From assembly GCF_057098645.1 (NCBI RefSeq), contig NZ_CM169472.1: 64,000 nt of DNA, one strand, 5' to 3'. Both the position numbers and the translations under genes were made by a program. Position 1 is the stretch's first letter. Each line of letters starts with the position of its first letter. This document shows, in pieces, positions 4,631-4,763 of this stretch. The notes under the pieces were generated by a model. That model did not search any database. It had not been told where the DNA came from and saw nothing but the letters and a program-made list of their open reading frames with translations.

Positions 4631-4763
4631 ACCGTTTCACTATACTCTACTTAATTCGAGTTACAGGAAGGCGGCAAGCGAGTGAATCCCCAGGAGCTTA
4701 CATAAGTAAGTGATTGGGGTAAGCGAACGCAGTCGCAGCACATGCAACTTGAAGTATGACGAG
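4631..4763. repeat. ERIC (enterobacterial repetitive intergenic consensus) element
   Basis: Contains ...AGTGAATCCCCAGGAGCTTACATAAGTAAGTGATTGGGGTAAGCGAACGCAGTCGCAGCACATGCAACTTGAAGTATGACGAG, matching the ERIC core from memory; imperfect palindrome, higher GC than flanks. Confidence 0.85.

Follow-up and report, generated by a model that had tools for sequence, protein, structure and literature searches.

The window (the whole stretch of DNA that was analysed, 64 kb) begins in the left part of the LEE pathogenicity island of Escherichia coli O157:H7 type. Here ler, the first gene of the LEE1 operon, and the divergently oriented espG are separated by an intergenic region of 1313 bp, which contains a repeat of the ERIC family; the 1315 bases between and around the two genes are 99.7–99.8% identical to O157:H7 and related chromosomes. 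The features of the region are listed below with their strand, where assigned, and the basis of each assignment in brackets.

3889–4260, minus strand: ler, first gene of LEE1 (open reading frame list; PGAP annotation of near-identical O157:H7 DNA)
4434–4463, minus strand: LEE1 distal promoter P1, TTGACA at 4463–4458, 18-bp spacer and TACACA at 4439–4434 (read from the sequence)
4626–4641: Cra (FruR) operator GCTGAACCGTTTCACT (consensus match; published footprint and mapped probe primers)
4641–4767, plus strand, the orientation of the ERIC consensus: full-length ERIC (IRU/RU-1), 127 bp (alignment with three other ERIC loci; blastn)
4641–4665: left terminal inverted-repeat arm of the ERIC, beginning with TATACTC (inverted-repeat search; paired in the fold)
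4688–4719, plus strand: central conserved core hairpin of the ERIC, CCCCAGGAGCTTACATAAGTAAGTGATTGGGG (central stem in the folds; almost invariant in the alignment)
4743–4767: right terminal inverted-repeat arm of the ERIC, finishing with GAGTATA (inverted-repeat search, fold and alignment)
4764–4773: (TA)n run at the right junction, insertion target (in silico excision compared with the empty site)
4881–5028, plus strand: degenerate left-end remnant of an IS3-family element with the start of orfA (nucleotide and translated matches)
5503–5530: espG promoter-like site, the only good one for espG, approximately 736 bp from the ERIC (promoter scan)
5574–6719, plus strand: espG, divergent from ler (open reading frame list; PGAP annotation of the O157:H7 counterpart)

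The repeat is located 381–507 bp from the ler ATG (4260), which makes the distance of about 350 bp given in the initial annotation acceptable, and 807 bp from the espG start codon. P1 was assigned from the published promoter, whose transcription start, approximately 163 bp upstream of the ler ATG, corresponds to position 4423 or so; relative to this start the ERIC occupies about −218 to −344. The core of P1 is invariant in all LEE lineages compared. The scan of the region for promoters gave eight promoter-like sites against 7.0 expected, i.e. the level of chance, none of them supported as reading into the ERIC, and neither a promoter-like nor a terminator-like site was found in or beside the repeat. 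A weak promoter-like motif facing away from ler (TCAACA-17-TAAAAT, plus strand, 4460–4488) overlaps the −35 box of P1 on the other strand and is at chance level for DNA so rich in AT. Short open reading frames (46–61 codons' worth of amino acids) across or after the ERIC have no Pfam match and were treated as noise.

Identity and edges of the ERIC

To set the edges of the repeat, the window was aligned with five ERIC copies from three loci (ybhJ-ybhI, yeiL-psuT and dxs-yajO). Homology to these copies begins sharply at 4641 (TATACTC...) and stops sharply at 4767 (...GAGTATA), beyond which the flanks are unrelated; within these limits 116–121 of the 127 positions are identical (91–95%), and the window copy differs from the majority of the aligned copies at six private positions. 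The element of roughly 130 bp proposed in the initial annotation is thus borne out by the alignment, with its borders moved by 10 bp on the left and by 4 bp on the right. Positions 4631–4640 (ACCGTTTCAC) are outside the ERIC and belong to the Cra operator. The 22-mer GTGAATCCCCAGGAGCTTACAT, which is presumably the complement of the ERIC1R typing primer, has a single exact match in the window, at 4682–4703, with none expected from shuffled sequences. Used as a blastn query, 4631–4763 gave tens of thousands of matches, spread over 5425 of the 5426 complete E. coli genomes, mostly at 90–95% identity and covering the query from position 6 or 11 to 133; per genome the median was 10 places, with nine on O157:H7 chromosomes.

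The terminal arms (4641–4665 and 4743–4767) are 76% complementary according to the inverted-repeat search and make the element an imperfect palindrome. Folded as RNA, the plus strand reaches −47.3 kcal/mol (z −3.9) and the minus strand −38.5 kcal/mol (z −2.2); as single-stranded DNA the element folds at −19.6 kcal/mol (z −3.2), with its ends paired together. No Rfam family was found at the ERIC locus at the gathering score. With an E-value threshold the only match was RF02818, V_AS5 (Vibrio antisense RNA AS5), on the plus strand at 4640–4763 (36.6 bits, E 6.9e-6); it spans positions 1–129 of the 129 of the model and is far under the gathering score of 96. The V_AS5 family has presumably been built on, or derived from, a repeat of ERIC type; the likeness to the window ERIC is an alignment over the full length of the model, but a sub-threshold one and with a family from another genus.

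The length near 127 bp, the end-to-end similarity, the core 22-mer, the palindromic fold, the TA termini and the dispersed copies confirm 4641–4767 as a genuine ERIC, far beyond chance. That it is a GC-richer palindrome formed by chance and no real ERIC can be practically dismissed, given the full-length identity of 91–95% to ERICs at unrelated loci, the sharp edges of homology and the copies found genome-wide. Reviews give 127 bp as the canonical length, and 5′-TA-3′ at the termini together with target-site duplication is a described property of ERICs (Table 1 of PMC2229807). The window copy resembles the ERIC/IRU/RU-1 family (Sharples & Lloyd 1990; Hulton et al. 1991; Wilson & Sharp 2006) in length, sequence, palindromic structure, TA termini and target, and also in being present or absent depending on the strain. 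It differs from the copies at the three fetched loci, which follow the 3′ end of a gene, in being placed between divergent genes, upstream of both promoters, and inside a horizontally acquired AT-rich island.

The composition of the surroundings requires one correction. The initial annotation described a GC-richer palindrome interrupting very AT-rich DNA; the palindrome is there, and so is the contrast on the ler side (46% GC in the ERIC vs 26% in 4261–4640, and no A/T tracts of at least 4 nt in the ERIC vs 2.9 per 100 bp on the LEE1 side), but on the other side the GC content remains at 43% for 433 bp (4768–5200) and AT-rich DNA returns only near espG (5201–5573). The ERIC is the edge of a block of GC-normal DNA (40–50% GC) and not an island within AT-rich DNA. 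The adjoining segment on the LEE1 side, 4561–4640, is the least conserved part of that side, with 60–70% identity between LEE clades vs 90–98% near the ler leader and the P1 core.

The GC-normal block also carries the IS3-family remnant at 4881–5028, which is common to the O26-type LEE. It shows 73–75% nucleotide identity to IS3-family transposase loci over approximately 150 bp, and its translation RFTWHQIIAVINSVKVGQTISKIC matches 15 of 28 residues of the OrfA N-terminus (roughly the first 28 codons, E 1e-10); the Pfam HTH_Tnp_1 match is under the cut-off (E 0.27) and no intact reading frame is left. In O111:NM 08-4377 an IS3-family pseudogene and a copy of IS1203 (3228–4748 of the fetched locus) are situated between the ERIC and the place where espG is expected, starting at about the equivalent of window position 5097. 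The outer part of the ler-espG intergenic region is thus a place where mobile DNA has collected.

Occurrence of the ERIC among LEE islands

LEE-positive genomes were collected with ler and 370 bp of its upstream DNA as the query, which gave 696 of the 5426 complete E. coli genomes, and the filled site was scored with the segment 4561–4850, spanning both ERIC junctions, at a coverage of at least 80%. The ERIC-filled site is present in 456 of the 696 genomes, about two thirds, almost all at 99% identity to the query or more; those examined individually were O157:H7, O145:H28, O111:NM, FHI_NMBU_03 and E2348/69, and O55:H7 is also among the ERIC-carrying LEE types. Another 234 genomes, O26:H11 and O103:H2 among them, have an empty site of the O26 type. 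The remaining six are of a divergent type, and the dog isolate fetched from this group is likewise free of the repeat, which brings the LEE-positive genomes without the ERIC to 240. Among metagenome contigs containing the invariant P1 core, 16 LEE loci were recognized, nine filled and seven empty; two more of the 18 matches (L019 and L031) have neither ler nor espG and were discarded as chance matches.

Since the junctions of the ERIC were blurred in the MAFFT alignment, the repeat was excised in silico and the joined flanks were compared with the empty site. They align continuously with the O26-type empty site CGCTATATAGC (...CGCTATATAGCTATTA...), and the score rises from 264 to 269.5 if one extra TA is kept, as a TA target duplication would predict. 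A duplication of a TA target is therefore the likely reading of these sequences, although it is not uniquely placeable in the (TA)n run.

One filled locus departs from the rest. In the LEE of Escherichia sp. MOD1-EC7003, approximately 510–560 bp upstream of ler, the ERIC is at the same site and lacks its central 72 bp, a case of decay and not of maintenance. The same locus shows a perfect Cra palindrome, GCTGAAACGTTTCA, and retains a segment of about 20 bp absent from the O157/E2348 type; farther out, unrelated DNA, possibly the end of another IS, breaks into the region. A scan of representative genomes with a back-translated Ler pattern returned MOD1-EC7003 only and neither Citrobacter rodentium nor E. 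albertii, the pattern being probably too strict (serine codons were fixed).

The similarity of the LEE1 region is 0.90–0.997 within the filled group, 0.89–0.99 within the empty group and 0.80–0.89 between the two. Two such sequence clusters are consistent with a single insertion event. The ERIC is identical in all five filled-site representatives aligned, and this invariance is not evidence of constraint because the flanks are almost as conserved: LEE flanks differ by about 1.6% between O157 and E2348/69, and at this rate a 127-bp element should differ at roughly two positions.

The presence of an ERIC at this site is already known, reportedly since the first LEE sequence papers. Elliott and co-workers for the E2348/69 LEE and Perna and co-workers for the EDL933 LEE, both in 1998, are reported to have marked an ERIC between rorf2/espG and orf1/ler, and Zhu and co-workers reportedly noted in 2001 that it is absent from the LEE of RDEC-1, which is of the O26/O103 (beta) type. 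The window ERIC is the same element in the same place as the one reported for E2348/69 and EDL933, and the E2348/69 locus does carry it. A full-text literature search for ERIC together with the LEE or ler region returned only persons named Eric or ERIC-PCR. What is added here is modest: the exact edges, the tally in 696 genomes, the internally deleted copy, the nearby IS3 remnant, the adjacency to the Cra operator and the overlap with published probe and reporter.

The Cra operator at the left end of the ERIC

The region was expected in the initial annotation to carry regulatory input of LEE1, and the expectation was right: the site of regulation here is in fact the Cra operator, which touches the left end of the ERIC, and a published probe overlaps the repeat. 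The segment 4626–4641 matches the Cra/FruR consensus RSTGAAWCSNTHHW (taken from PMC5829826) at 14 of 14 positions on the minus strand, where it reads AGTGAAACGGTTCA, and at 13 of 14 on the plus strand. A search of the whole 64 kb for GCTGAANCGNTTCA with at most one mismatch returned this site alone, as an exact match. The last base of the operator is the first T (4641) of the ERIC and of its TA target.

Binding has been described by Njoroge et al. 2012 (PMC3482499), who used EMSA and DNase footprinting to locate Cra 'around -350 bp' in the ler promoter, with protection at the predicted site and not over the ERIC sequence, took a '-450 to -255' fragment of this promoter as the EMSA probe, and proposed an interaction between Cra and KdpE via DNA looping. 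The consensus match and the published binding together identify 4626–4641 as a Cra operator. The primers of the probe, which served in both papers and is documented in the supplement of PMC5829826, map to 4548–4591 and 4724–4744 of the window, the latter within the right arm of the ERIC. The probe therefore corresponds to 4548–4744 and consists of 93 bp of LEE flank and 104 bp of ERIC (104/197). The same mapping places the +1 of these papers at approximately 4293–4294 and hence the Cra motif at about −333 to −348. A term search of PMC3482499 found no mention of the ERIC repeat.

In the same paper the activity of a ler-lacZ fusion extending from −393 to +86, the long ler reporter of the Sperandio laboratory, drops in a K-12 cra mutant and is restored by complementation (PMC3482499). 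By the primer mapping, the '-393' end falls at about 4687, inside the ERIC, and the fusion keeps approximately 47 bp of its left part. With that much of the repeat the palindrome cannot form, yet the fusion is Cra-dependent. Of the nested LEE1 fusions described, LEE10-568 should span the complete ERIC if its number counts from the ler ATG, and LEE10-275 stops short of the repeat.

The Cra site is intact (14/14) in all ERIC-carrying LEE lineages examined and degenerate in the empty ones, with 11/14 in the O26 type, 10/14 in the dog type and 12/14 in a further metagenomic variant. Control of ler by Cra through 4626–4641 may, on these sequences, be specific to one clade. As the filled lineages form one cluster, the co-occurrence of the ERIC with the intact operator counts as one evolutionary event and has no statistical weight.

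Passenger repeat or regulatory element

We consider it probable that a single insertion, at a TA, brought the ERIC into the ancestor of one LEE clade and that the repeat is now a neutral or nearly neutral passenger. A non-autonomous miniature inverted-repeat element would have entered a TA of the short (TA)n run in the ancestor of the clade comprising O157:H7, O55:H7, O145:H28, O111, E2348/69 and one Escherichia sp. The insertion site is just beyond the Cra operator as seen from ler, and of the mapped LEE1 inputs this operator is the farthest upstream. None of the mapped LEE1 operators falls within the repeat, and the promoters on either side both point away from it. As double-stranded DNA it would only add 127 bp of GC-normal sequence devoid of A-tracts at the outer edge of LEE1 control; it would be dispensable for LEE1 expression and for Cra-dependent control, and in one descendant lineage (MOD1-EC7003) it would have begun to decay. 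Gain of the ERIC, as opposed to its precise loss, is suggested by parsimony in an unrooted comparison.

We infer the neutrality of the element from three observations: 240 of the 696 LEE genomes do without it, one copy has decayed, and the −393 fusion still depends on Cra. The roles put forward in the initial annotation, namely an effect on DNA curvature, on silencing of LEE1 or on the stability of a divergent transcript, have no support; the empty sites, the Cra-dependent fusion, the missing promoter-like and terminator-like sites, the position upstream of both flanking promoters and the place at the edge of a GC-normal block all speak against a required function.

A role in DNA architecture is unlikely. 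The ERIC could terminate the AT-rich tract prone to H-NS, or could help Cra to bind or to loop towards KdpE at P1. It abuts the Cra operator and has T4641 in common with it, and its composition differs from that of the LEE1 side (46% vs 26% GC, with no A/T tracts of at least 4 nt against 2.9 per 100 bp). The Cra site scores 14/14 in the ERIC-bearing lineages vs 10–12/14 in the ERIC-less ones, ERIC DNA accounts for over half of the published Cra EMSA probe, and looping between Cra and KdpE has been proposed (PMC3482499). However, the co-occurrence with the Cra site is a single phylogenetic event, and the GC-normal block runs for 433 bp past the ERIC, so that a compositional boundary would exist even without it. 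Moreover, the fusion lacking most of the repeat stays under Cra control, the MOD1-EC7003 LEE has lost 72 bp of the ERIC, and the reported protection by Cra covers the predicted site and not the repeat. If the ERIC did help Cra in this way, the dependence of LEE control on sugars should differ between the clades that carry the repeat and those that lack it.

It is very unlikely that the ERIC and the intact Cra operator it touches make up one functional module, found only in the O157:H7/O145/O111/E2348/69 clade, in which the repeat would set the distal boundary or the geometry needed for Cra to work from a position near −340. A functional link of this kind predicts that the intact site is always accompanied by the ERIC, and shared ancestry predicts it equally. 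Under such a module, the LEEs of O26/O103 type, with no ERIC and a degenerate operator, would have no link via 4626–4641 between LEE1 and the sugar metabolism sensed by Cra.

An action at the level of RNA, with the ERIC included in a divergent transcript or in a long espG leader and its hairpin modulating the stability of the transcript, is highly improbable. The hairpin is more stable on the plus strand, the direction of espG (−47.3 kcal/mol, z −3.9), and the V_AS5 match, sub-threshold as it is at 36.6 bits, indicates that ERIC-like elements can be transcribed elsewhere. Effects of ERICs on mRNA stability are documented in Yersinia, where the repeats are co-transcribed with their neighbours and alter mRNA decay by exposing an RNase E site in an orientation-dependent manner (De Gregorio et al. 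2005). The Yersinia copies and the window ERIC belong to the same repeat family and share a strand-asymmetric stability of the hairpin. The documented mechanism nevertheless requires transcription, of which the window ERIC shows no indication. The repeat precedes the P1 start by approximately 218 bp, on the side that is not transcribed, and is approximately 736 bp upstream of the sole good espG promoter-like site (5503–5530); the promoter-like matches in the region are at the level of chance (8 vs 7.0) with none supported as reading into the ERIC, no terminator was found, and no sRNA has been reported at the locus. One sRNA, sRNA350, is located in the cesF 3′ UTR and not between espG and ler, and is irrelevant here. 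Since the ERIC is upstream of the promoters of both flanking genes, nothing indicates that it is transcribed. ERICs in general are reported to be located in non-coding but transcribed DNA (Hulton et al. 1991).

The Correia elements (CREE) of Neisseria offer another comparison. They too are small mobile elements with inverted repeats which use TA targets and can enter regulatory regions, but they may carry promoters or IHF sites and undergo cleavage by RNase III, and no such motif was found in the window ERIC. Reviews list no DNA motif for ERICs.

The insertion matters little for biology at large, being that of a common enterobacterial repeat. It is of practical concern in work on LEE1, as the '-450 to -255' Cra probe consists for the greater part of ERIC DNA and the '-393' reporter has its end inside the repeat. 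Only the ERIC-carrying lineages have an intact copy of the adjacent Cra operator; sugar control of ler deduced from O157:H7 or E2348/69 may therefore not apply to strains of the O26/O103 type. As a lead that might merit an experiment, only this difference in the operator from one LEE clade to the other stands out.

Elsewhere in the 64-kb window no tRNA gene was found, so that selC is not at the window's end of the island. Matches at the Rfam gathering score occur at 27641–27770, 42448–42520, 47899–47941 and 53418–53498; the families are istR, the ROSE_2 thermoregulator, ES036 (CssrF) and AsdA (antisense RNA of dnaA mRNA).
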